From Candidatus Babelota bacterium (GTDB lineage: Bacteria > Babelota > Babeliae > Babelales > Vermiphilaceae), in contig JBMOLF010000010.1 in assembly GCA_049325595.1 (NCBI GenBank), positions 64,001-128,000 of the forward strand: a stretch of DNA of 64,000 bases. The letters are read 5' to 3'. This document shows positions 32,867-44,453 of this stretch, piece after piece (the first letter of the stretch is position 1; each line of letters opens with the position of its first letter). The notes under the pieces are model-generated. The model had not been told where the DNA came from and made no database searches. It saw only the letters and a list, made by a program, of their open reading frames with translations. The translations under genes and the position numbers were made by a program.

Positions 32867-32900
32867 AACAGCCTCTTTGATAAAAGAGGCTGTTACTTTT
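32867..32900. terminator. Bidirectional terminator ending the atp cluster
   Basis: AACAGCCTCTTT-GAT-AAAAGAGGCTGTT. Confidence 0.88.
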
Positions 32901-33850
32901 TACAGTCCTTTTTTCATGTGCAATAAATATTTTATTTCTTGAGAAGTTTTTGCACCCTTATTAATAAGAAATTTTTTAGTTTGTGCAGTTACCTTAAGAT
33001 CATCTTCTATTAAATCGAGCACAGTTAGTTCGTCATCGTTAAATTGATTTATATTAGCACCATTATCAAGCAGGGCTTGTATTGCTCTTATATTATTTTG
33101 TGTTGCATGATGTGCAAGTGCTGTGTATCCTTCATTGTTTTCGTGGGTTATTGATGCACCTTTGTTAATGAAAAATTTAATTAAGACCGGATCTTCTTCA
33201 TAAAAAAGAATTGAAGAGCCAGTATTATCGGTATGGTTTATATTAGCATTATGATCCAAAAGCAGTTGTGCAATCTTAATATTTGGTGCAAAAAAAAGTG
33301 CCGTTAATCCTTGGGTATCTGTAGCATTAACAAAAACACCGAGTGATAATAATTTTTTAATTAAGCTATAACGATTTTCATTTACCGCTTTCATAAGCAA
33401 AGTGCTTTTTTTATTACATAATTGTGCATTAGGTCCTGCAACTAAATATGAGACACGTGGGCCTTCGTGAACAATTTTTAATGCGTTAAGAAATTTTTCT
33501 TTTATAAAATATAAGTTATCAAGATCTTCTTTTGAAATAAGGTTTTTTGGTGCTATATGTTCTTCATCAGTTTGTGAAATTGCACGACTAGGGCTTTTTA
33601 GATAACCATCTAAAATAGCTTCACGTTCGGTGATAGTATATACCTTGCTGCTTAGCAACAGTGAATACAATAGATCCAATCCTGCTGTAACCGGTAGATT
33701 GAGTATTAAATGTATCGCTTTTTTAACAGAGTGTTCTTTTTCGATCTGGTCTAAATTTGCTTTGAGTGATTTTTGGTAATGACTCAGGCCATGAATAGTA
33801 TGGCTTGCCAGTAGGTAAAAAATAGTAGCTAGTATTGATACATAGTTCAT
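32900..33850 (-). CDS. Secreted ankyrin repeat protein
   Basis: AAGGAG RBS, signal peptide, GLTALFFA...LLDHNANIN, GYTALAHHA...LLDNGANIN. Confidence 0.9.
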   Translation of the reverse strand: MNYVSILATIFYLLASHTIHGLSHYQKSLKANLDQIEKEHSVKKAIHLILNLPVTAGLDLLYSLLLSSKVYTITEREAILDGYLKSPSRAISQTDEEHIAPKNLISKEDLDNLYFIKEKFLNALKIVHEGPRVSYLVAGPNAQLCNKKSTLLMKAVNENRYSLIKKLLSLGVFVNATDTQGLTALFFAPNIKIAQLLLDHNANINHTDNTGSSILFYEEDPVLIKFFINKGASITHENNEGYTALAHHATQNNIRAIQALLDNGANINQFNDDELTVLDLIEDDLKVTAQTKKFLINKGAKTSQEIKYLLHMKKGL

Positions 33851-33936
33851 ATAATCTCTCCTTTTTATCACCAGCTTAACAATCTTTTATAACTCAATTG
33901 AATACTTGATTACTTAGAGTGGTAAATTTGAAGATT

Positions 33937-34650
33937 TTAGTGTGTAAATTCTTTATAGCAATTAGTTTGGTATTGGGATGGCGTAGCAGTAAATATGAGT
34001 TTGGGATCAACCCCATTTACTTCTAAATCTTCATAACATATTAAATTTTCAATACCCATTTCATCAGGTTTATTTAAAATTCCTAATTCGTAATAATTTA
34101 ATTCTTCATTATCACTAGCATTCTCGATAATAGTTTCTGCGGTATCAGATGATTCAGATGATTCTAACGAATAGGATAATTCTGATGAGAGATTAGATAG
34201 ATCAATTTTTTTACACGATTTAATATGCGCTAATAAGCTTGATATAAGAGTATATTTAATCCCACATGAACATTGAAAAAAATCATTAGCATAATGACCT
34301 AAAAAGCATGAAGCAACACCGACAGCATTTGCTTTGCTTGTGGTTTTGCAATCAGGGTAAGGGCAATGATACTGAATAGCTTTACGTCCATCAGGTCTAA
34401 CCGTATAGCTTGTTTCTCCACCTTTAATATAATCTTTAATCGATTCAAACGTGGTGAATTGTTCAAATTTATTTGCAAAAAATTGAGTAATTCTACTATC
34501 AACTTGTGCCTTAACAAAGTTTTTAACATCAAATTCACTATACGAATTACCTTCTAATGATTGGCAACTATTTCTTATACTTTTATGGCTCATAGCATGA
34601 ATCGATTGAGTAATACATAAGAGTAATAATTTTAATATAATTTTTTTCAT
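33937..34650 (-). CDS. Secreted zinc-finger protein (paralog 1)
   Basis: MKK signal peptide; Cx4Cx13Cx3H and CxCx12Hx3C; acidic Ser-rich tail. Confidence 0.82.
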   Translation of the reverse strand: MKKIILKLLLLCITQSIHAMSHKSIRNSCQSLEGNSYSEFDVKNFVKAQVDSRITQFFANKFEQFTTFESIKDYIKGGETSYTVRPDGRKAIQYHCPYPDCKTTSKANAVGVASCFLGHYANDFFQCSCGIKYTLISSLLAHIKSCKKIDLSNLSSELSYSLESSESSDTAETIIENASDNEELNYYELGILNKPDEMGIENLICYEDLEVNGVDPKLIFTATPSQYQTNCYKEFTH

Positions 34651-34663
34651 ATAGTTTACTCGG

Positions 34664-35380
34664 TTAAAAGCTTGAATTTTCATAGCCATTTAAAGAATCA
34701 AATTGAAAAGATGTAATCTGTTCGATTTGATTTTCAATAGCATCAAAATCAGTCTTTTTAGAAGCGCAGATATTTAATGGTGATTGATAGTTATTTATAA
34801 TAAGTTTTGGCAGCTTATATAATTGATCTGTAGATGGTTGATTTTTTAATTTGATAATTATCGATGGTATTGGTATTGCCACATTGTTTTCGGTGGTGTT
34901 ATTGAGAGGTTGAGAAAATTGTCTTTGTTTTTTGCAAGACTTTTTTATGTGAGACCATAAGCGTTCTATATTTTTGATTGATTTATCGCACTGAGGGCAA
35001 TGAAAAAAATGATCATAGTGAGAAAGAAAGCAGGAAGCAACTTCGTTGATATTTTTTTCTCTGATTGTTTGACAATTCTTATATGGGCAGTGATATTGAA
35101 TTATTGTTTCTGAATTTTTCTTAACATAGGTTTTTACCCCATTTTTAACATGCTCCCTAACTGCAGCAAAACTAGTAAGTTGAGGATATTCATCAGCAAA
35201 AAAATTACTAATTTTATTGTTAACAAGTTCCATAACGCTACATTTAATTGTTGTAAAATCTGTCTCAGAAAATTTTTTGTTCTTGATTATGCGGTTATGT
35301 GTTATTGGGGTGCTATTCTCCATTGGGTAAAGAAATGAATACATGACTAATGCAAGCGCGACAGATAAAATTTTTTTCAT
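34664..35380 (-). CDS. Secreted zinc-finger protein (paralog 2)
   Basis: MKK signal peptide; Cx4Cx13Cx3H and Cx2Cx12Hx4C. Confidence 0.82.
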   Translation of the reverse strand: MKKILSVALALVMYSFLYPMENSTPITHNRIIKNKKFSETDFTTIKCSVMELVNNKISNFFADEYPQLTSFAAVREHVKNGVKTYVKKNSETIIQYHCPYKNCQTIREKNINEVASCFLSHYDHFFHCPQCDKSIKNIERLWSHIKKSCKKQRQFSQPLNNTTENNVAIPIPSIIIKLKNQPSTDQLYKLPKLIINNYQSPLNICASKKTDFDAIENQIEQITSFQFDSLNGYENSSF

Positions 35381-35638
35381 AAAAATGCCTTTATATAATG
35401 ATAATCATTAAAAATTAAAATATATTCGGACAGCAAATTTCTGTAAAGCTTTTTAGGTATTGGCAAGGAGGAATTTTGTGTTAAAAAAGCTACTTAGTTA
35501 AAAGATGTGCGATCATTAATCCTAGACGAGCTTACGCTTTGATCGAAGGGATATCTGATTGTTTTATAGGAAAAAATATCTTTTAATATTGAGAATTTTT
35601 AAAAAAATGATAAGCTACAGAATAATCTTTTCTAAATT

Positions 35639-35715
35639 GTGCCTGTAGCTCAGCTGGATAGAGCAACGGATTTCTAATCCGTAGGTCATAGGTTCGAATC
35701 CTATCAGGCACACCA
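35639..35715 (+). tRNA. tRNA-Arg (anticodon TCT), CCA encoded
   Basis: GTGCCTG/CAGGCAC acceptor stem, D arm GCTC/GAGC, ACGGA-TTTCTAA-TCCGT, ATAGG-TTCGAAT-CCTAT. Confidence 0.98.
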
Positions 35716-37161
35716 AGTTTGACGTTCCGAACAATTTAAGATCAAATCAAATGGCTTTTGCGCCTCGTAGACGATGTTTTCACCATCCACCTGTAAGTTC
35801 GATAGTACGAGCTTAATTAATTGCCGTTTTTCTGTAACTTCAGAACTTTTAAAAATATCATAGGCGTGATTTGTCAGATCTAGTATGTATTTTGCGGTAA
35901 TATAGTAGTTATCTTCTGCCTCTTGTAAGCGCTCTAATTTGAGGGTTACTTCGGCAAGCTGATCTCTAAATGATTGGTAAAATTTGTCATACGCGCTCTC
36001 AGTAATTCTCCCTTTGAGTTTATCAAGGTATAAATTGTCCATCATTTTGGTCAGGGATTGGTGTTGGCCCGTAAGCTCTTTGTATTGTTTCGTTTGAAAA
36101 TCCATCTTATATTGGTGGACTTCATCCAGCGTTTGCTTGATAGTGGCTGCTACGTTGGCTGGCATTTGGAGATTCTTAAAAACTTGGCTGAGCTTTTCGG
36201 TTATTGTTTCTTCACGTAACCAGGCTGCACCATGCTTGCCGTTGTATTGGGTGCAATGGTAATACACAAAACCTTTATGCTTTTCTGGGGTGATTGCCAA
36301 TCCGCAGGTAGCGCATCGAAACATACCTCGATAGATATAGGGCAATCCGGCAAACTTGGCAGGCTTCTTTTTATAGCTTGCTTTTACTTCTTGCACTCGA
36401 TCAAAAAGAGTTTTGGGGATAAGTGGTGGATAACGATGGGGATAAAATTTATCATTTCTTTCCATCACCCCGTAATAGAAATGATTTTTGAGAATATGAT
36501 CGGTAAAGCCTTTAGACCAGGTAACGTTATAATCTTCTTTGAGCTTTGCCCGTAATAAATCCATGGAGTAAACCCCAGTGCCATACAGCTCAAATGCTTT
36601 TTGAACAATATAGGCCTTGTGATCATCAATGATAATATCTTTTTTACCATCCGGTGTTTTTATATTTTTGTATCCTAATGGCGCTTTACCAGGCAACTCG
36701 CCTTTGCGTAGCTTTTGCTCATTGGCACGGCGCACATTGTCGCTAATAGCATCAGAGTAATATTTGGCCAACCCTAAGCTGATGTTAAATTGAAACTTTT
36801 CAGTAGCGGATATCCTACTATTGATAACCTGCCCTTCTGAGACAAAGTGAAGCTCAATCTGATCACACAATGCTTTTTCGTATAATAAAGAAATACGCTT
36901 ATCAAATACATTACGGGAAAGCCGATCAACCTTATCGCAACATACGATAACTTTTTCTTTTTGACTCAAAATTAAATCGATAATGCGATCAAACTCAGAG
37001 CGCTCTAATGAGTAAGCGCTTTCATCAAAACTACAGATGTTTAAAATGGGGTAGCCTTTTTGCTCACAATAGCGCTCAAGGCGGGCAATCTGCGCAGGTA
37101 ATGAGTTACCGGCTTCTCGTTGTTCTTCAGTACTCACGCGGGCAATAAGAATGGCTTTCAT
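35704..37161 (-). CDS. Large serine recombinase (integrase)
   Basis: ARVSTEEQ catalytic Ser, DRLSR, APLGY, CATCG...YYHC zinc ribbon, coiled coil, EKRQLIKLVL. Confidence 0.96.
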   Translation of the reverse strand: MKAILIARVSTEEQREAGNSLPAQIARLERYCEQKGYPILNICSFDESAYSLERSEFDRIIDLILSQKEKVIVCCDKVDRLSRNVFDKRISLLYEKALCDQIELHFVSEGQVINSRISATEKFQFNISLGLAKYYSDAISDNVRRANEQKLRKGELPGKAPLGYKNIKTPDGKKDIIIDDHKAYIVQKAFELYGTGVYSMDLLRAKLKEDYNVTWSKGFTDHILKNHFYYGVMERNDKFYPHRYPPLIPKTLFDRVQEVKASYKKKPAKFAGLPYIYRGMFRCATCGLAITPEKHKGFVYYHCTQYNGKHGAAWLREETITEKLSQVFKNLQMPANVAATIKQTLDEVHQYKMDFQTKQYKELTGQHQSLTKMMDNLYLDKLKGRITESAYDKFYQSFRDQLAEVTLKLERLQEAEDNYYITAKYILDLTNHAYDIFKSSEVTEKRQLIKLVLSNLQVDGENIVYEAQKPFDLILNCSERQTWCA

Positions 37162-37266
37162 GGTGGTCTCTGCTTAGTTGAAATTTTTAAATCCTTAGCA
37201 GTTTAGTGATTCATGAAAATATTTCTAGAGTTAATGACAGGGGCGTATGAAAAAAGTATCGTACCA

Positions 37267-37295
37267 TAGACAATGTATCATGATCGTGATACGAT
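37267..37295 (+). promoter_or_regulatory. Sigma70 promoter with overlapping palindromic operator for the TA operon
   Basis: TAGACA-17bp-TACGAT; GTATCA-TGATCG-TGATAC palindrome in the spacer. Confidence 0.7.
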
Positions 37296-37320
37296 AAGAT
37301 ATAAAAGTCTGGAGAAGTAA

Positions 37321-37704
37321 ATGTCTAAAAGTTATATAGTATATGAAGGCGAACAATTTACCATAGAATGGTATTTTGACAGCCGTGGAACAAGTCGGGC
37401 TCGGGAATATTTTAATGAATTATCACATGATAGAAAAAATAAATTTTCCTATCTGCTTTTTCTTCTTGCTAATAGAGGGAAAATATTCAACCAAGAAAAA
37501 TTTCGTTATGAAGGTGATCAGATATATGCTTTAAAGCCAACACCGGATCGGTTCTTATGCTTTTTCTATGATGGTTCAAAAATAATAATTACTAATGCAT
37601 ATGAAAAGAAAACAGCAAAGATGCCGGTGCGTGAGAAAGAAAGAGCATTAAAGGCAAAAGCTGATTATATAAAAAGATGTCAAGGAGGAACCTATTATGA
37701 CTAA
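37321..37704 (+). CDS. RelE/ParE superfamily toxin (Gp49/HigB-like)
   Basis: IYALKPTPDRFLCFF...IIITNAYEKKTAKMP..EKERA; precedes and overlaps HTH gene. Confidence 0.85.
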   Translation: MSKSYIVYEGEQFTIEWYFDSRGTSRAREYFNELSHDRKNKFSYLLFLLANRGKIFNQEKFRYEGDQIYALKPTPDRFLCFFYDGSKIIITNAYEKKTAKMPVREKERALKAKADYIKRCQGGTYYD

Positions 37705-38029
37705 AAAAAAGATGAAATCTACTCTTGAGGAACATATTGAATCAATGACGCCAAAACAACGAAGAGAGTTTGAAGCTGAATATCAAGAGCTTTTATTGTC
37801 TGAATTGCTTTTAGCTGCTATGGCCAAAGATGAAGTTTCAGTAAGAGAGCTGGCTAGAATGGCTGGTGTATCGCCTACGGTAGTGCAAGCAATGCGCACG
37901 GGAACAAAAAAAGATTTTAGCATGCAGAGCTTTTTTAAAGTGTTAAAAGGTCTTGGTTGTAAAAAAATAATGGTAGAGCTTAATGGTCAATTAATCCCAT
38001 TAGATATATCTCAATCAATTAAAAAATAA
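37697..38029 (+). CDS. XRE-type HTH antitoxin
   Basis: VSVRELARMAGVSPTVVQAMRTG HTH; coupled to toxin. Confidence 0.85.
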   Translation: MTKKKMKSTLEEHIESMTPKQRREFEAEYQELLLSELLLAAMAKDEVSVRELARMAGVSPTVVQAMRTGTKKDFSMQSFFKVLKGLGCKKIMVELNGQLIPLDISQSIKK

Positions 38030-38205
38030 TGGCAAGAAGTAGAAATTATAAAGATCTATTAATTGAATCATTAAAAGATCCTACAGAAGCAGTAGGTTAT
38101 CTAAATGCCATTCTTGAAGACTACAAAGATAATGATGAAAAATCACAAATAGTATTGCAAGTAGTACTAAAAGATATCGCGCAAGCACAAAAAAATTATC
38201 GTTAA
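38029..38205 (+). pseudogene. Truncated addiction-module antidote-like ORF (58 aa, lacks HTH)
   Basis: Not in ORF track; MARSRNYKDLLIESLKDPTEAVGYLNAILED...VLKDIAQAQ then stop; TAATG overlap with antitoxin. Confidence 0.6.
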
Positions 38206-38281
38206 TGATACAGAGAGGAGCACTACAGAAATGTGGTGCTCGTTTAATTACAACTTTTCAAGAGAGTTGCATGAGCTTAAA

Positions 38282-38905
38282 ATGAGTAAAATACGCTGCT
38301 TATTAAAATATTGCGGGAAGTATTATTTAATCTGCTTTATTAGATTTGTGAAAGACAAGGTTTTAGTAAGCTTTACAAGTTCTCATTGGTCAGAAATATT
38401 TGGTTTGGAAATTGAACATCATTTTAATTATCCTAGTAATGGAAAATTACATAGCACTTACAATCATTTTGACAAGACTAATGATTCAGATAATTTTTTC
38501 ATTCATGCCTATAGCAATAAAATAGTTACTAAATCTTTTAAAAATGGCCAACAAAAAAAAGATGAACGCAACGGTAAAGAATTATTAAATCACTTTATTA
38601 ATAATAATTGTAGACCATTATCTGAATATGAAACTACAAGTACTTTTTTTGATTTTCCATGTATTGGATTTGCAATTTGCTCAATTCCAGAAGAGCAATT
38701 TAAAAAATTTCAAGCTTCATTCCCCAAAGAAAATGATGTGATAATTGACGCAGAGTTATGGAATGGTACTTGTGTGACTATAACGCCATATGTTGCAAAC
38801 AAAGAATATGAACTTTCTTTTTTTCCTTTTGCTATAAAAAGTGAAATCGACTGTGGAAAATTAAAAATTGGTATACGTGTAAGCCTCAATAAGCAAAATG
38901 TTTAA
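38282..38905 (+). CDS. Hypothetical cargo protein
   Basis: Long AT-rich ORF without recognised domain; start uncertain (38231 alternative). Confidence 0.6.
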   Translation: MSKIRCLLKYCGKYYLICFIRFVKDKVLVSFTSSHWSEIFGLEIEHHFNYPSNGKLHSTYNHFDKTNDSDNFFIHAYSNKIVTKSFKNGQQKKDERNGKELLNHFINNNCRPLSEYETTSTFFDFPCIGFAICSIPEEQFKKFQASFPKENDVIIDAELWNGTCVTITPYVANKEYELSFFPFAIKSEIDCGKLKIGIRVSLNKQNV

Positions 38906-40046
38906 GGTTTATTGGTTTAAATTTCTTTAAACATTCGCGCACCGTTTCAAATGGGCTTTGGGTACCAACTATTTTTACTTTTTGTACATCTTTAATAAGC
39001 CGATACCAGCTGCGTTGATTGCATTTGGCAAATAGCGCTCTTAGTTCCCGTATATTTACGACATCTAATGCTTTTGATAAGCCATAGGTAATTAAAATTT
39101 GCTTAGGGCTTAGTTCAGGATTGTTAATAATTAATGAAGCTAGCAATGCTTTATCGACCTGTCCTTCGTAGCCTTGGCGGAGTAGGATGGGTGCTTTGTA
39201 ATCCAAGATTGCTAATCGTGCCCTTTCAATCTCATCAAGATAATGTAAAAGAACTTTTTTAGAGATGGTTGGTTTGAATAAGCTTTTAAAAGAAAGATCT
39301 GATGGTATATGCAAAACTTTAAAAAGCTGTTTAATTTTGTGCCGTTTATTTAAACGTACTTCCATGCGCAAGATTTCAAGTTTGTTGCGATTATTAAATC
39401 TATCAAGAAAGTTTAATTGTAATTCGTTATCTTTTTCTAATGCACGTTTGCTGCTCGCTTGTGCTTTCTCAAGATCTTTTATTTTGTCATAGAATACCAC
39501 TTCATATGAGTTGCAATGCCATTTGTAGCTGTGGCCTTCATTGCGATAATCAGTTTGATTTACATCAAGAGTAAGCTTAGTGTTTGCTTCTTTAATTTTG
39601 TTTATGTAGTGGTAAGGTGTTGAGCCATCAGTTAGTGGAATATTTTTTGAGTAGTGGATAGCTGATAGCGGTGCTTTTGCTAATGTTGCTGGTGTTGTGT
39701 GTATGCCCATGTTTGCAAGCACCTGTGCAAGCTTATGAGTAAGTGCTGCAAAATCTTTGGCGCGTAATTCTTGAAAATTGTTACCAAACATGAGCTTTGG
39801 CAATGATAACTCAATTTTGAGCGACACTGTTGAACCACCTAATGGGTTGATGCGGTGAGCGAGAGTAAGGCATGGTTTGTAAATACCCAATGCAAATTCC
39901 CTTTTGGTGGGATTTTGTTTTGATTGGATGCCGTGCGATTGGTTCGTGTAAGGTTGTAAAACCCATTGCGCTGATGGTGAAAATAATTCAGGATCAGTGA
40001 GCGTAAATTGGTCTTTGCGTAAAAGAATTACTACCGTGTCTATCAT
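38886..40046 (-). CDS. Phage/plasmid replication initiator, gene II/X-like (rolling-circle)
   Basis: MIDT start, IELSLPKLMFGNN, VFYDK, ILRMEVR motifs. Confidence 0.75.
   Translation of the reverse strand: MIDTVVILLRKDQFTLTDPELFSPSAQWVLQPYTNQSHGIQSKQNPTKREFALGIYKPCLTLAHRINPLGGSTVSLKIELSLPKLMFGNNFQELRAKDFAALTHKLAQVLANMGIHTTPATLAKAPLSAIHYSKNIPLTDGSTPYHYINKIKEANTKLTLDVNQTDYRNEGHSYKWHCNSYEVVFYDKIKDLEKAQASSKRALEKDNELQLNFLDRFNNRNKLEILRMEVRLNKRHKIKQLFKVLHIPSDLSFKSLFKPTISKKVLLHYLDEIERARLAILDYKAPILLRQGYEGQVDKALLASLIINNPELSPKQILITYGLSKALDVVNIRELRALFAKCNQRSWYRLIKDVQKVKIVGTQSPFETVRECLKKFKPINLKHFAY
39156..39190. repeat. GC-rich REP-like palindrome inserted in frame in rep
   Basis: GACCTGTCCTTCGTAGCCTTGGCGGAGTAGGATGG, encodes ILLRQGYEGQV, contains GTAG twice. 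Confidence 0.6.
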
Positions 40047-40302
40047 ACAACACATACCTCAAACAAACGAATAAGCAATTGCTTAAAGATAATGCGGCAG
40101 CTAAAAAAGACAAGACCTGGTTTTTAATCCAGGCCTTACTTACTTCTTTTGATCGTACTTTTTTTGCACGACGACATATATTGGTTCGTTGATCAACTTG
40201 ATGCAGCAATGATATAAATGCTACAAGCTGTTGCAAATCTGATGGTGACAACGCAAATGTCTGCGCTCGTGTACGCGTACGAGTAGTTTTCTTTAATGTC
40301 AT
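39994..40302 (-). CDS. Small basic hypothetical protein upstream of rep
   Basis: ORF overlapping rep start; basic N-terminus. Confidence 0.5.
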   Translation of the reverse strand: MTLKKTTRTRTRAQTFALSPSDLQQLVAFISLLHQVDQRTNICRRAKKVRSKEVSKAWIKNQVLSFLAAALSLSNCLFVCLRYVLYDRHGSNSFTQRPIYAH

Positions 40303-40528
40303 AAAATTTCTGTTCTAACAATGAGTTGAATATATGAAGATTGCTTGCTTAGTAGGCAAATTGTTTTTGAGGATGATTATGCCTGGATTCAGATAACCAT
40401 AATGCATAATCAATAATATAGAACAGATTCATGGGTTTCTCTTGTGAGAATAAAGTTTGCTTTATTACAACGAGAAGCAAGTATAAATAGTTTGATATGG
40501 ATTGCAAGAAGATAACATTCTTTAAAAT

Positions 40529-40570
40529 AAAAATAGGTGCAGATTTAATTGGCTACACCTATTTTAGAAT
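40529..40570 (-). terminator. Intrinsic terminator after cargo gene
   Basis: AAAATAGGTG...CACCTATTTT stem. Confidence 0.7.
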
Positions 40571-40584
40571 AGATTTGGGAGAGA

Positions 40585-41136
40585 TTATCGTACTTCTGCA
40601 GTAACATCAAGAAGTGATTCAGATAAATCATTGCCTTTAAGATCTAAATTAATACCAAGGCCTATTTTCTTCTGATTAACTAAATCAATATTCTCTGACC
40701 AGTACGTTATGATGCCTGGGCCTGTACGTATTGAATTGAACATAACCCTAATACCATCTAAATCTGCAGGATTAATCCTTGGTCTTATAGTAATAAATAG
40801 AGCGCCTCTAACATTATTTCTTTCATCAGATACTTTAATTGTAGCATCTCTAATTATCGCATCTCCTGAACGTACTGGGCGCAAGGTTATTGGCACATTT
40901 TTTACTGTTTTTCCAGGTTTTAATAAGATTAATCTTATTTCTTCTTTAGAATAAACATCGCCAGGTAAATCACCGACAGCTTCAGACAAGAAAAGATCCT
41001 GATGAGTGTGATTAGTCACTTGAGCATAGTAGGCAAAAACTTTATCAAGATTGTTTTGGTGTGGTTCTGCAGGCTGCATTGCATTTACAATTCCTAAAAC
41101 AGTGAATGTGAATATCATTTTCTTCATTAAATTCAT
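40585..41136 (-). CDS. Secreted cargo protein of the element
   Basis: AAGGG RBS, MKK signal peptide ending VNA-MQ; beta-rich. Confidence 0.75.
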   Translation of the reverse strand: MNLMKKMIFTFTVLGIVNAMQPAEPHQNNLDKVFAYYAQVTNHTHQDLFLSEAVGDLPGDVYSKEEIRLILLKPGKTVKNVPITLRPVRSGDAIIRDATIKVSDERNNVRGALFITIRPRINPADLDGIRVMFNSIRTGPGIITYWSENIDLVNQKKIGLGINLDLKGNDLSESLLDVTAEVR

Positions 41137-41651
41137 TTGGAATTTCCCTTAAAAAAATTTATTAACCTATACTAAGAATAACAAAAGAGATATTCTAATA
41201 GCAATAAATCGCAGGGAAAAGATGAATAAAAAATCTGTAATTTTACATTTATATAAATAATCAAACTTAAGTATTCAAACTAAGACCTACTTCCGAAAAT
41301 AACGTTTGCAGGTTTATTAAGCTCACGGTAAACTCAATTTCGCCGTTCCTGAACATATCTATAAAGTGATGATGTATGTAGTTGATATGGCTGCACTGCA
41401 AAATATAATAGCTTATGGAGCAAAAAAATTAGTTTAAAATTGATTAATTTTTGCACTGCATATTGCATGTAGCGGCTTGTAAAAGAACGTTATGAATGAT
41501 CAATCTGAGTGAGCACACATTATTGCTCAAAAATCTGTGTAATTAGAAATAGATTTTCTTGAGGCGTATCTCTTGGTACCATTAGAGCTACATTATATTT
41601 GTATATATTTTGTATTATGAAATTGTATTTTAAAGGTTTTAAAAAAGATTC

Positions 41652-42509
41652 ATGAAAATTAGATTTTTCCTATTTTTTTATTTGTTATTTTCACAAACCA
41701 GTTATTCCATGGATTTAATGGAAATGTGTGTTAGTGATAGTGATGCGACTACAACAGATATATTTGATAATTTTTCAGATGATTATTTATCTGAAGAAAT
41801 AAGTACGTGTGATATTCCTAAACAACTCAGCGAAATTACTGAAGCATACAACGGTTATTTTACAAACATTTATAATTCTTATGTTTTAGATGCTCAGCAA
41901 ACAGCTACTCAATTTTTTTCAAATAAAATGAATGAGATGATTTGTTGCTCAGCATTGCTCAAGAGTTGCAACCACAATACCAATAAAATTGAGTTATCTC
42001 TTGAACAGATGTCTTGCTCTGAAGAATCTGAATTAGATAATGCCCCATCAAAAAATAATAGCAAAGCTTATGAAACCACATATACCTACGAAGATGATTA
42101 CAAATATCAACCATCACAAGATATAGTTAATGATCCAGTAAAGCTTGAACGGTATGATAGATTTCATACATTGATCAATCTGCGCTATAAAGAAGCAAAA
42201 AAGCTATGTTGTAGCCAATCATTTAAAACGATCAGAGCATTTAAAAAACATGTTACTGAACACCATGTAACCTGTGTTAAACAAAATAATAAAACAATTT
42301 CGCAATATCACTGTAGTGATTCTGTATGTCAGGAATGTCCTTATAAATCGGCTGATGCGGCAATAAGCCATTTTTTACACAAACAAAATCCAAAGTTATT
42401 TTGGTGCCCAGAGTGTCCTTGGAAAATAAAAAGTTATACGGCATTTTACCGCCATTATAATTTTAATTGTCCCACATTAAAAAAATCTTGCACTGCCAAA
42501 ATAAAATAA
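41652..42509 (+). CDS. Secreted zinc-finger protein (paralog 3)
   Basis: Signal peptide, acidic N-region, CCx12Hx3H, Cx4Cx13Hx2H, Cx2Cx12Hx4C. Confidence 0.85.
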   Translation: MKIRFFLFFYLLFSQTSYSMDLMEMCVSDSDATTTDIFDNFSDDYLSEEISTCDIPKQLSEITEAYNGYFTNIYNSYVLDAQQTATQFFSNKMNEMICCSALLKSCNHNTNKIELSLEQMSCSEESELDNAPSKNNSKAYETTYTYEDDYKYQPSQDIVNDPVKLERYDRFHTLINLRYKEAKKLCCSQSFKTIRAFKKHVTEHHVTCVKQNNKTISQYHCSDSVCQECPYKSADAAISHFLHKQNPKLFWCPECPWKIKSYTAFYRHYNFNCPTLKKSCTAKIK

Positions 42510-42524
42510 TTAGAGGTAATTGTT

Positions 42525-43496
42525 TTAGAAATCATTAAAATTCATCTCTTCTAAATAGTTTTGAGATTCATCGTATGAGCATTGATTAAGTTGGTAAGCA
42601 TAATAATTTTCTGGTGATTGTGTTATGTCATTAAGAGCGATTACATTGGGCCTTATACCCGGCTGATATGAAGCGACAATTTTTTGTACAGGTGTTTTTA
42701 GTTGACTGTTTTCTAATTCACTGTTGTAAAGAGCACATTCATTAAGGTAATGATCTTTAAGGATTTTATATTTTTCAAATTTTTCCTTGCATCTAGGACA
42801 AGTAAAAAAAATTTTATCAAAATGTTTTACATAACAGTTTGCTACTGAATCTATTTGCCGGTCGTCACAAAAAGAACAAAATTTATAAGGACAATGATAA
42901 AATCTATCTAGATCACGATTAAACTTAATACATTGTTTTAATTGTTCCCAAGTTTTGATATGCAATTTATTGGGTTGATTAGGATTACCAAAATTTTTTT
43001 CAATTTGTTGATCAATGTATGAATCAAAATATTTTTTATGATCAAAATCATTGCTTTCTAATTTATTACTCTCAATTTCTTGATACGAATTGTTTTGCTC
43101 AACTCTTTTGTTCTCGCTCTCAATTGGCGTTGATTGCTGTAATTGAGCAATTTGTTTATCGTCATTATCATCTTCGATAATGATGATATTGTTGTTCTGA
43201 TTTAATTTGTTACGGCCAGTAAAAAAAATGAGTTTAGGGGTTTTAGGTTGAGTTGGCTTTATAATAATGCGAGGAGTCTTATTACTGGGTTTTTTATCAA
43301 AAAGAATATTATCAGGCTGTGTATTTACACGAATGCGTAAATGTTGATTGCGGTGAGGTTTGTTGTACTTTATGGAAAAATCTGGCTGTTTGCTGGTGTT
43401 ATCCATTGCGTGTATGACAGCATTAATAATAAACAAACAACAAACTCGGTATTGTTTTGATGTTTTGCTTGATTGATTGTTTATATACTGAGCCAT
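42525..43496 (-). CDS. Zinc-finger protein (paralog 4), probably secreted
   Basis: VIHA-MD, N/Q-rich region, Cx4Cx13Cx3H and Cx2Cx12Hx4C. Confidence 0.8.
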   Translation of the reverse strand: MAQYINNQSSKTSKQYRVCCLFIINAVIHAMDNTSKQPDFSIKYNKPHRNQHLRIRVNTQPDNILFDKKPSNKTPRIIIKPTQPKTPKLIFFTGRNKLNQNNNIIIIEDDNDDKQIAQLQQSTPIESENKRVEQNNSYQEIESNKLESNDFDHKKYFDSYIDQQIEKNFGNPNQPNKLHIKTWEQLKQCIKFNRDLDRFYHCPYKFCSFCDDRQIDSVANCYVKHFDKIFFTCPRCKEKFEKYKILKDHYLNECALYNSELENSQLKTPVQKIVASYQPGIRPNVIALNDITQSPENYYAYQLNQCSYDESQNYLEEMNFNDF

Positions 43497-43643
43497 TTCT
43501 ATGCACCATTCATTTTAAATTAATTACTTATTTTTTGAGCATACTATGCTGTTTGAATCCAGTTGCAAATGTTTTTATTTCTATTGATATTTTTTTGATT
43601 TCAAACAGAATAATATAATAAACTTTTTTATGTTTGGATTATT

Positions 43644-44453
43644 ATGTCTTATATAATTGTTGTGGCTTTAATGTATATTGTACAAGCAGCATCTTTGGTA
43701 ATTGCTTGTGATAAACTCAACTCATCAAATGAATTTGAATTTGATTTAGGAATTCTTAACAAATCAGAAGAATTTCCCGTGCAGGAGTGGTATGAGATTC
43801 CTAACAATCAGTTCATTGACTCAAATGGTGCTATTGATCAACCTACTATACAACCAATACCAGTTCCTATGGCAGTATCGAACGATTATTACCAGCAGCT
43901 TGTCTATTCCAATTATCAAATTAATGTTATTGCACCACTCGTGATTCAACAATTAGTAGTTAACAATAATGTTATCTGTTCACCTAATGCCGATAACAAA
44001 CAATGCCATTATAATTTTATACCCTATGATCCTGTTAAAAATATAAGGAAAACTAGGAATACTCATCAAAAGAATAAGTTTACAAAAGTGATAGGTAAAG
44101 CAGCGACATCAAACCCAAATCAAAAAATTACTGATATTAAAAAAATCGTAGAAAAACGATTAAAGCGCATTCCCAAGCAATGCCATAAGACTACTTTTAA
44201 TACTATAAACGAGTTATATCGACATTTAAAACAAGATCATCAAACGCCACTAGGATTTAAATGCGGATATGTAAACACAGATCAAGATGGTAATGAATTA
44301 AATACATGCCAAGAAATTTATTTAACTGAAAATGGATTTAAAAATCATTTCATTACGCATTTATCACCAAATGCTTTTGAATGCCCTGCTTGCGCTTTTC
44401 GTTTCTCTTGTAGAAACAGTTTATATGTTCATTACCAAAATAAACATCTTTAA
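43644..44453 (+). CDS. Secreted C2H2 zinc-finger protein (paralog 5)
   Basis: Hydrophobic N-terminus; three fingers ending in canonical FECPACAFRFSCRNSLYVHYQNKH. Confidence 0.85.
   Translation: MSYIIVVALMYIVQAASLVIACDKLNSSNEFEFDLGILNKSEEFPVQEWYEIPNNQFIDSNGAIDQPTIQPIPVPMAVSNDYYQQLVYSNYQINVIAPLVIQQLVVNNNVICSPNADNKQCHYNFIPYDPVKNIRKTRNTHQKNKFTKVIGKAATSNPNQKITDIKKIVEKRLKRIPKQCHKTTFNTINELYRHLKQDHQTPLGFKCGYVNTDQDGNELNTCQEIYLTENGFKNHFITHLSPNAFECPACAFRFSCRNSLYVHYQNKHL

Follow-up and report, generated by a model that had tools for sequence, protein, structure and literature searches.

The 64,000-nucleotide stretch of Candidatus Babelota DNA analyzed here (contig JBMOLF010000010.1, positions 64,001 to 128,000; hereafter the window) carries, between positions 33937 and 44453, five genes that are part of a fast-evolving, lineage-specific paralogous family. 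Their products combine a hydrophobic, signal-peptide-like N-terminus with a module of three zinc fingers, and it is very likely that the family consists of exported C2H2 (Cys2His2) proteins. The reading that we favor, tentatively and with slightly less than even confidence, is that these are putative host-directed, exported nucleic-acid-binding effectors of amoeba-infecting Dependentiae, possibly transcription-factor mimics. The parts of this reading differ in strength: the proteins are probably host-directed, binding of nucleic acid by the modules is an evenly balanced proposition, and transcription-factor mimicry proper is doubtful.

The window lies on contig C10 of its genome (G000; 1.29 Mb in 24 contigs, 95% complete), for which a set of 2,497 six-frame open reading frames (ORFs) was used. 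A sister genome of the same genus (G246) served as the reference for synteny. The window is AT-rich (G+C 30-39%), and the closest match to its AtpA protein is from 'Candidatus Dependentiae bacterium Noda2021' (89% identity), an isolate that grows in Vermamoeba vermiformis and whose cells are surrounded by altered mitochondria (PMC8812299). All five ORFs of the initial annotation exist, and the likely start of the first is Met14, at position 34650. We refer to them as genes A to E.

33937-34689 as an open frame, 33937..34650 from the likely start, minus strand: gene A, 237 amino acids (aa) starting MKKIIL; signal-peptide-like N-terminus, one three-finger module and an acidic Ser-rich tail (family profile E 6.8e-34)
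34195..34503, minus strand: module of gene A; finger 1 without Cys and His ligands, finger 2 C-x4-C-x12-C-x3-H, finger 3 C-x1-C-x12-H-x3-C
34664-35380, minus strand: gene B, 238 aa; signal-peptide-like N-terminus and one module (34916-35227) (E 8.7e-38)
41652-42509, plus strand: gene C, 285 aa; signal-peptide-like N-terminus, acidic region and a single module (42144-42506) in which fingers 1, 2 and 3 are all kept (E 8.4e-35)
42525-43496, minus strand: gene D, 323 aa; signal-peptide-like N-terminus, N/Q/K-rich region and a module (42717-43031) (E 8.8e-30)
43644-44453, plus strand: gene E, 269 aa; hydrophobic N-terminus, FDLGIL motif, Q/N/P-rich linker and a module (44124-44450) ending in a canonical C-x2-C-x12-H-x4-H finger (E 9.1e-24)

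A profile of the region shared by these proteins finds all five, at E-values of 9e-24 to 9e-38, together with six further paralogues among the 2,497 ORFs. On iteration the search converges at 11 proteins with 18 modules in G000, each protein holding one to four modules of about 100 residues. The members outside the window are as follows.

C15:230232-231197: family member
C17:5355-6638: family member
C17:14096-14665: family member
C23:27389-32951: three adjoining family genes, one of them encoding 880 aa with four modules

In G246 the profile gives 19 module matches, and 11 family ORFs lie within the island syntenic to that of the window, so the earlier description of an expanded family holds for both genomes. 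The paralogues have diverged widely. B, C, D and E are each 21-29% identical to A, and the alignment of the five proteins retains invariant C, C, F, C, C and H columns. All five carry F-x-C-x(1-2)-C-x12-H and, after it, a C or H. The motif YHCPY..C, which the initial annotation had assigned to three of the proteins, is common to A, B and D, while C has YHCSD in its place; the canonical last finger that it had noted belongs to E. Divergence is also rapid between genomes: family orthologues of G000 and G246 are about 30-40% identical (gene B, 36% over 239 aligned residues with the ORF at the syntenic place), compared with 51-98% for nine flanking housekeeping ORFs. Among the sequencing runs matched to the cluster, none was of RNA. 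A closer strain, which among four runs compared was represented by contigs of the one coded X4 (proteins P0001 and P0003), has versions of C and A that are 92% (261/285) and 80% (191/238) identical, with all zinc ligands kept; in its atpA, 22 of the 26 listed in-gene differences fall at third codon positions. Of 2,559 candidates from a word-indexed protein search, only three proved to be close, and the window's own protein was one of these.

The anatomy of the module was determined from 37 copies, 17 from G000 and 20 from G246. It runs from an amphipathic helix (h-h-x-x-R-h) through finger 1 and finger 2 to a five-residue spacer, which leads into the F-x-C of finger 3. The sequence KKIVEKRLKR, previously taken for a separate basic patch, is in fact this conserved N-terminal helix. 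Ligands in the 37 modules are distributed as follows.

Finger 1: x-C-C-x3-h-x5-h-x2-H-x4-H, cysteines adjacent; C in 30, C in 27, H in 30, H in 28
Finger 2: C-x2/4-C-x12-(H or C)-x3/4-H; C in 36, C in 36, H in 17 and C in 17, H in 29
Finger 3: C-x2-C-x12-H-x3-5-C; C in 36, C in 35, H in 37, C in 32 and H in 2

Finger 2 is thus evenly split between CCHH (17/37) and CCCH (17/37), and finger 3 takes the form C-x2-C-x12-H-x3-5-C in 32 modules. Fingers 2 and 3 stand at the canonical distance (H, five residues, F-x-C), with a linker sequence other than TGEKP; the distance from finger 1 to finger 2 varies. The adjacent cysteines of finger 1 are found at 42204-42212 in gene C and at the equivalent place in 27 of the 37 modules, the other spacing of the finger being canonical.

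Profile comparisons support homology between these fingers and eukaryote-type tandem C2H2 arrays, as judged from sequence. Against solved structures, a profile of 17 modules matches CTCF at E 7.2e-22 and also TFIIIA, ZBTB24, ZFP568, PRDM9 and Zif268. The best single stretch of CTCF (independent E-value 4.2e-7) covers profile positions 20-96, that is, three fingers in register. Among 1.84 billion representative proteins the module profile has 77,919 matches at E<=1e-3. The best 150 of these are dominated by multi-finger proteins, which are up to 5,807 aa long and match the profile in 10-49 stretches, and the nearest donor lineage therefore cannot be read from that list. A Pfam scan of the five proteins gave C2H2 hits for B, C and E, all sub-threshold, and none for A and D; the best row was zf-C2H2_4 in E (E 2.8e-4, 21.8 bits against a cut-off of 27). 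The same scan gave no ROS_MUCR hit at E<=1, and a six-frame search of G000 with PF00096 gave no matches. The earlier call of C2H2-type fingers is accordingly borne out at the level of the family profile, whereas Pfam offers sub-threshold hits only.

We used AlphaFold to predict the structure of the module, and all structural statements below refer to such models. With the 37-row alignment, the C module was predicted with a mean pLDDT (predicted local distance difference test) of 91.4 and a pTM (predicted template modelling score) of 0.76. The model consists of a helix at residues 3-17 followed by three hairpin-plus-helix (beta-beta-alpha) units, the fold on which the initial annotation had staked its proposal. 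A, B and C have an additional predicted beta-hairpin, placed between finger 1 and finger 2. Full-length A, modelled from five sequences only, has a pLDDT of 77-90 over residues 38-150 and of about 25 in the tail (155-237); the helix of its ligand-less finger 1 is still predicted (H68-76). The top rows of a Foldseek search of the PDB are C2H2-DNA complexes (CTCF, ZBTB24, ZFP568, WT1, KLF4), all weak (E>=0.07, TM score 0.2-0.3), and no PDB entry matched the module model at E<=0.001. In a wide VIA-align search no row scored above Z 4.0, and the matches, each about two fingers in size, were to SERRATE, the Zap1 finger pair (Z 3.7), Kaiso and Fzf1. In the ESM Atlas, C2H2-named clusters appeared at 0.91-0.93 with low shared-feature counts, which makes them leads only; the Atlas model of C is poor (pTM 0.37). 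In these models the single fingers look classical, and their mutual packing appears to be without a solved counterpart in the fold searches made (Foldseek, VIA-align), which are uninformative on the fold of the module as a whole.

Charge is distributed unevenly along the proteins. The 37 modules have a median net charge of +6 and a median pI of 9.04, and 33 of them lie above pI 8. For comparison, the proteome has a median pI of 8.46. Among 105-residue windows drawn from it at random, the median net charge is 0 and 12.8% reach +6. Summed over the family, modules carry +96 over 1,775 residues and the remainder of the proteins -66 over 1,977 residues. The regions outside the modules contain 31-40% S/T/N/Q, against 22% genome-wide. 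They are acidic, polar and predicted to be disordered, in agreement with the acidic, Ser- or N/Q-rich low-complexity regions seen initially. A short motif, [FY][DE]LGIL[NSD] in an acidic context, occurs in two of the 2,497 ORFs, both of them family members: A (34075-34092, minus strand), as YELGIL(NK) in the acidic tail, and E (43740-43757, plus strand), as FDLGIL. It is also found in two G246 family ORFs (L016 7412-8119 and 9900-10643, both minus strand), one of which is the A orthologue, with the motif at the same position in the tail. We take the motif to resemble the acidic-hydrophobic activation core of VP16, as a lead rather than a test.

Signal-peptide calls were made with a hydropathy rule and inspection by eye. 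As first described, each of the five proteins has a hydrophobic N-terminus: within the first 45 residues, the highest Kyte-Doolittle score of any 10-residue window is 2.33-3.23, and no later transmembrane-like segment is seen. Such an N-terminus, often following MKK, is present in 11 of 11 family proteins in G000 and, by eye, in 11 of 11 proteins of the G246 island, as well as in 19 of the 23 ankyrin ORFs of G000. The genome encodes parts of the apparatus that export would need.

Signal peptidase I: present in G000
C12:22939-23349: LspA, present in G000
C9:48860-53923: two secretin genes, about 4.5 kb apart, above cut-off
Two type II secretion system (T2SS)-type ATPases (T2SSE), above cut-off, which could equally serve type IV pili

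VirB4 and FHIPEP, markers of type IV and type III secretion systems (T4SS and T3SS), had no match in the 95%-complete G000 assembly. DsbA and DsbB likewise had no match there, from which exported cysteines would be expected to stay reduced and free for zinc. These features agree with published accounts of relatives, as far as the sections of those papers used here go: Chromulinavorax destructans has signal peptides on 44% of coding sequences and on 78% of ankyrin proteins, which are proposed effectors (PMC6561590); type II is the only secretion system found in Babela (PMC4378268); and all TM6 genomes studied have two gspD genes (PMC4776705).

Zinc fingers of this kind extend well beyond the genus. 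We surveyed 261 Dependentiae genomes from 145 genera; since many of these genomes are related, counts over them are not independent. The module profile has matches at E<=1e-5 in 55 of the 261 genomes and 36 of the 145 genera, and full-length module matches stronger than 1e-13 occur in G000 and G246 only. Phylogenetic distribution had been put forward as a check of the original proposal; in this survey, fingers above the Pfam cut-off (PF00096, zf-C2H2) are present in 59 of 261 Dependentiae genomes as against 1 of 14 control genomes, and in 81 of 261 at E<=1e-3. In examples taken from 12 other genomes, 30 ORFs have at least two fingers by regular expression; 22 pass the strict N-terminal hydropathy rule, six fall just below its threshold and are signal-peptide-like by eye, and two lack such an N-terminus. 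In three of the genomes these genes stand in tandem clusters of paralogues.

G013:C1:233000-243000 (L081): seven genes
G055:C2:1-4500 (L082): five genes
G056:C28:2500-9000 (L086): six genes

In the 18 adjoining paralogues of these clusters, a signal peptide and an acidic stretch precede 4-12 fingers, each exactly 28 residues long and joined to the next by an HTGE(K/R)P linker. The number of fingers differs between neighboring genes. The G013 consensus is a textbook Krüppel repeat with a TGEKP linker, and one canonical Dependentiae array protein matches PF00096 at 1e-92 and zf-H2C2_2 at 7e-112. Under the favored reading, the module of the window would derive from Krüppel-type C2H2 arrays, a class widespread in Dependentiae.

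In solved C2H2-DNA complexes, the residues that contact bases are those at helix positions -1, +2, +3 and +6. Calculated from 48 (G013), 21 (G055) and 40 (G056) repeats, the entropy per position is elevated at residues 12, 14, 15 and 18 of the repeat, which correspond to -1, +2, +3 and +6. In G013 the three highest entropies are those of -1 (2.66 bits), +3 (2.96 bits) and +6 (2.83 bits). Positions +3 and +6 also rank near the top in G055 and G056, where some other positions have similar values. Arrays that are acquiring new DNA specificities would be expected to vary in this way. A broader proposal, which we regard as speculative and rather unlikely to hold in full, is that Sec/T2SS-secreted Krüppel arrays are a phylum-wide, fast-diversifying class of programmable DNA-reading effectors, a counterpart of TAL effectors on a C2H2 scaffold, and that in the genus of the window they have taken the form of a compact module with acidic VP16-like motifs that recruit the transcription machinery of the amoeba.

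Under the reading that we favor, the proteins would be exported by Sec with cleavage of the signal peptide and would then leave the cell by the type II system with its secretins, the one secretion apparatus that was detected. They would be delivered into the host cytoplasm, the putative site of replication. There the modules would fold in a zinc-dependent manner and bind host nucleic acid, most likely nuclear DNA, and the acidic regions would recruit host factors. Judged by length, mature A to E are about 24-34 kDa, so entry into the nucleus by diffusion is possible.

Several results weigh against this reading. The N-termini discriminate weakly, as the same crude rule flags 546 of 1,230 G000 ORFs of at least 100 aa (44%). 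The hydrophobic N-terminus of E (43644-43709) ends in a lipobox-like LVIA|C, and LspA is present; E may be a lipoprotein anchored to the bacterial membrane rather than a free secreted protein. None of A to E reaches a Pfam gathering score, and NCBIfam assigned 0 families to all five. The geometry of finger 1 is unusual, with adjacent cysteines instead of C-x2-4-C, and the finger is degenerate in A, B and D, where ligands have been lost. The predicted module forms a compact unit (pTM 0.76) and not beads on a string, and its model superposes poorly on DNA-wrapped arrays, given the Foldseek (E>=0.07, TM 0.2-0.3) and VIA-align (Z 4.0) values. Within the G000/G246 family, surface positions are all similar in entropy (3.0-3.7 bits), positions -1, +2, +3 and +6 being no more variable than the rest, and position +6 of finger 2 is mostly S, E or D in the 37 modules. 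The DNA-reading signature is therefore not visible in the window's own family and is extended to it by homology alone. Finally, motifs of the K[KR]x[KR] type, resembling a nuclear localization signal (NLS), occur at 2.20 versus 1.25 per 1000 residues, a weak and unconvincing enrichment, and are absent from A, C and D. The original suggestion of exported DNA-binding effectors that reprogram a host is accordingly sustained in part: C2H2 homology, signal-peptide-like N-termini, T2SS genes and the DNA-reading signature in the phylum speak for it, while the lack of that signature in this genus, the compact module and the lipobox-like site of E do not.

The same results bear on other functions of the module. 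It could belong to exported effectors that bind host proteins, the three fingers forming a compact scaffold comparable to that of ankyrin effectors. A compact predicted domain with a conserved packing helix would suit this role, as would the presence of non-DNA finger units (SERRATE, Z 4.0; the Zap1 finger pair, Z 3.7) among the best structural rows, the absence of excess variability at DNA-reading positions, a conserved A-A/L-S/E-(C/H)-Y/F-L face on the helix of finger 2, and a finger 1 that is degenerate in A, B and D yet predicted to fold. However, the modules are strongly basic (33 of 37 above pI 8), their homology is to DNA-binding arrays with canonical spacing of fingers 2 and 3, and relatives in the phylum show the variability signature of DNA reading; on balance we consider protein binding rather improbable. 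Basic modules would also suit exported effectors whose target is RNA or the nucleic acid of organelles, such as host mRNA, rRNA or mitochondrial DNA, in place of nuclear promoters. Relatives replicate wrapped in remodelled host mitochondria (PMC8812299 and, in the part of the paper used, PMC6561590), the proteins lack a clear NLS, and there are weak structural rows to SERRATE, ARS2, TFIIIA-RNA and ZFa. Those rows all have Z<=4, which is common by chance, and the variability pattern in the phylum fits the reading of DNA bases; we consider an RNA or organellar target improbable.

Location is the other point at which the effector reading can be challenged. The proteins might remain in the periplasm or on the cell surface and work for the bacterium itself, for instance by capturing or storing zinc or as part of the structure of its envelope. 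A Sec signal by itself leads only to the periplasm, E has VIAC in a genome with LspA, the proteins are predicted to hold many Cys/His zinc sites, and with 44% of ORFs bearing such N-termini, many must be envelope proteins. This explanation sits poorly with the fast divergence and expansion of the paralogues in a variable island beside ankyrin genes, with acidic disordered regions that conserve a short motif, and with the hypervariable base-contact residues of the relatives' Krüppel arrays, which are ill-suited to metal storage; we give it a small probability. Alternatively, translation could begin also, or only, at a Met that follows the hydrophobic segment, yielding cytoplasmic DNA-binding regulators of the bacterium. 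By eye, such a Met lies directly after the segment in seven of 11 G000 family proteins and eight of 11 proteins of the G246 island, and it is invariant in five of five A/B orthologues. Nevertheless, no paralogue has lost the open upstream hydrophobic frame with its MKK-type start, although identity is about 25% and the genome is AT-rich, the same arrangement is found in ORFs of many kinds (89 of the 546 that are signal-peptide-like), and neither start is preceded by a Shine-Dalgarno-like sequence. Internal initiation is highly improbable as an account of the family.

The family can be set beside several known systems. It shares the finger pattern, the predicted beta-beta-alpha fold and the spacing of fingers 2 and 3 with eukaryotic Krüppel/TFIIIA arrays (CTCF, Zif268/EGR1, TFIIIA, KRAB-ZNFs, PRDM9), and other Dependentiae arrays have the full HTGEKP-linked consensus with hypervariable -1, +2, +3 and +6 positions. 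Unlike the eukaryotic arrays, the window's family is bacterial, stands behind a signal peptide, lacks the TGEKP linker and is sub-threshold in Pfam; its module is a fixed helix plus three fingers, with ligands CC (adjacent)-HH, CC-CH or CC-HH, and CC-HC, predicted to be compact. Ros/MucR is a bacterial DNA-binding protein with a Cys2His2-type zinc site, formed by a single finger within a larger globular domain, and is cytoplasmic. The likeness goes no further than bacterial origin and ligand type, as the family has three fingers per module and signal-peptide-like N-termini, whereas Ros/MucR has no signal peptide. TAL effectors of Xanthomonas and Ralstonia are delivered into the host, where their array of modular repeats reads host DNA, and they possess an acidic activation region. 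Like them, the canonical Dependentiae arrays vary in repeat number between adjoining paralogues (4-12 fingers) and at base-contact residues. TAL effectors differ in their 34-residue repeat fold, type III delivery and defined NLSs, while G000 has no T3SS marker and its family no clear NLS; TAL-type repeats of 33-35 residues are absent from A to E. TAL effectors are the only bacterial effector family generally held to read host DNA directly, according to the abstract of PMC5570926. A signal peptide joined to a C2H2 domain is known from the rice blast fungus, where MoHTR2 is a secreted effector acting in the host nucleus, and MoHTR1 and MoHTR2 follow the same design logic as the present proteins (PMC12488382, in part). 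They are fungal and use a eukaryotic secretion route, and MoHTR2 has 110 aa and one finger region; this comparison is by description only. The ankyrin proteins of Dependentiae occur in the same genomes and the same island, with the same type of N-terminus and the same proposed Sec/T2SS route (PMC6561590, PMC4378268, both in part), but ankyrins bind proteins and are a different eukaryote-like domain.

No description of secreted tandem C2H2 proteins in Dependentiae or TM6 was found in the literature, and bacterial export-tagged proteins of eukaryote-style zinc fingers appear to be new to the literature as searched. In the portions used of three Dependentiae papers (PMC6561590, PMC4378268, PMC4776705) the class is not mentioned; the main text of the Babela and TM6 comparative papers (PMC4378268, PMC4776705), to the same extent, has no 'zinc', 'finger' or 'C2H2', and supplementary tables may list such domains. 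By titles and abstracts, the literature on nucleomodulins holds no bacterial C2H2 case that we found, and nothing relevant was found on TGEKP fingers acquired by bacteria through horizontal gene transfer or on C2H2 proteins in amoeba symbionts or Legionella. Standard annotation misses this protein class in the present genus, where Pfam stays below cut-off and NCBIfam reports nothing. If the favored reading is correct, it would provide a second bacterial scaffold for reading host DNA beside TAL effectors, built on the C2H2 finger, the transcription-factor domain most used by eukaryotes. Such proteins would stand behind signal peptides in roughly a quarter of the genomes of a phylum of protist parasites, and the view of how Dependentiae take over their hosts would change. 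They would also represent a clear capture of a eukaryotic domain by bacteria followed by arms-race-type expansion. Because the rules of C2H2 recognition are partly known, host target sites would be predictable from sequence.

The five genes lie in an island flanked by atpA and an ankyrin gene on one side and a GNAT acetyltransferase gene on the other. It contains a mobile element and several genes that are not zinc-finger family members.

32900-33871, minus strand: ankyrin-repeat gene with hydrophobic N-terminus (Pfam Ank_2 1.4e-16), an effector-like neighbor in the same island; 55% identical to a G246 island ORF
35639-35715, plus strand: tRNA-Arg(tct) (ARAGORN), in the middle of the cluster and the insertion site of the mobile element
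35704..40507, right end approximate: mobile element
35704-37161, minus strand: large serine recombinase of the element (Pfam Resolvase 1.2e-19, Recombinase 8.3e-9)
37321-38029, plus strand: Gp49-like and helix-turn-helix pair of the element (Gp49 1.1e-10, HTH_26 5e-5)
38029-40302: ORFs of the element without assignment, including one of 389 aa without family
40585-41136, minus strand: 183-aa island neighbor with signal-peptide-like N-terminus and without known domain, not a finger protein; 32% identical to a G246 island ORF

The mobile element splits one zinc-finger cluster, a conclusion supported by the sister genome. In the G246 interval from atpA to arfB, orthologues of A and B stand in the same order beside atpA, the ankyrin gene and tRNA-Arg(tct), and the syntenic island has no match to the recombinase or to other element genes. 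The earlier statement that removal of the element leaves one cluster around the tRNA is supported, as this tRNA lies among the 11 family genes of G246. The element is placed directly 3' of the tRNA, whose 3' end overlaps the last 12 nt of the recombinase ORF; similarity between G000 and G246 extends some 20 nt beyond the tRNA and breaks off at the end of the recombinase gene, and the end of the recombinase ORF seems to lie in sequence common with the element-free G246. No long direct repeats or att repeats were found for the element, and a PHROGs search of its unassigned ORFs returned nothing except one family of unknown function at E 0.004. The X4 strain also carries the recombinase, with a contig break inside it.

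It should also be noted that a Met followed by an acidic or polar residue (small residue|M-E/D/Q/N, often MEK) directly follows the signal-peptide-like segment in many G000 proteins. The 89 ORFs found by the strict rule include 46 with ME and 15 with MD; examples are C (41652-41711) and D (43404-43496), and the arrangement recurs in zinc-finger proteins from other families within the phylum. As a general flag of effectors it was rejected, with 3 of 23 ankyrin ORFs fitting the strict rule. The absence of a Shine-Dalgarno-like sequence before both the first and the internal start codon means that the two starts are not discriminated. This Met could be a retained ancestral start, a second start site or a residue that gives a stable, host-like N-terminus after cleavage.

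Two further differences were seen in the X4 strain. In finger 3 of A (34255-34275) the window reads Q-C-S-C (C-x1-C), the closer strain's A reads C-S-S-C (C-x2-C), and the X4 contigs have small insertions at 34262-34265. In place of 40507-41224, which holds the gene for the 183-aa protein, the X4 strain has 2,735 other letters, indicating that gene turnover is ongoing in the island.

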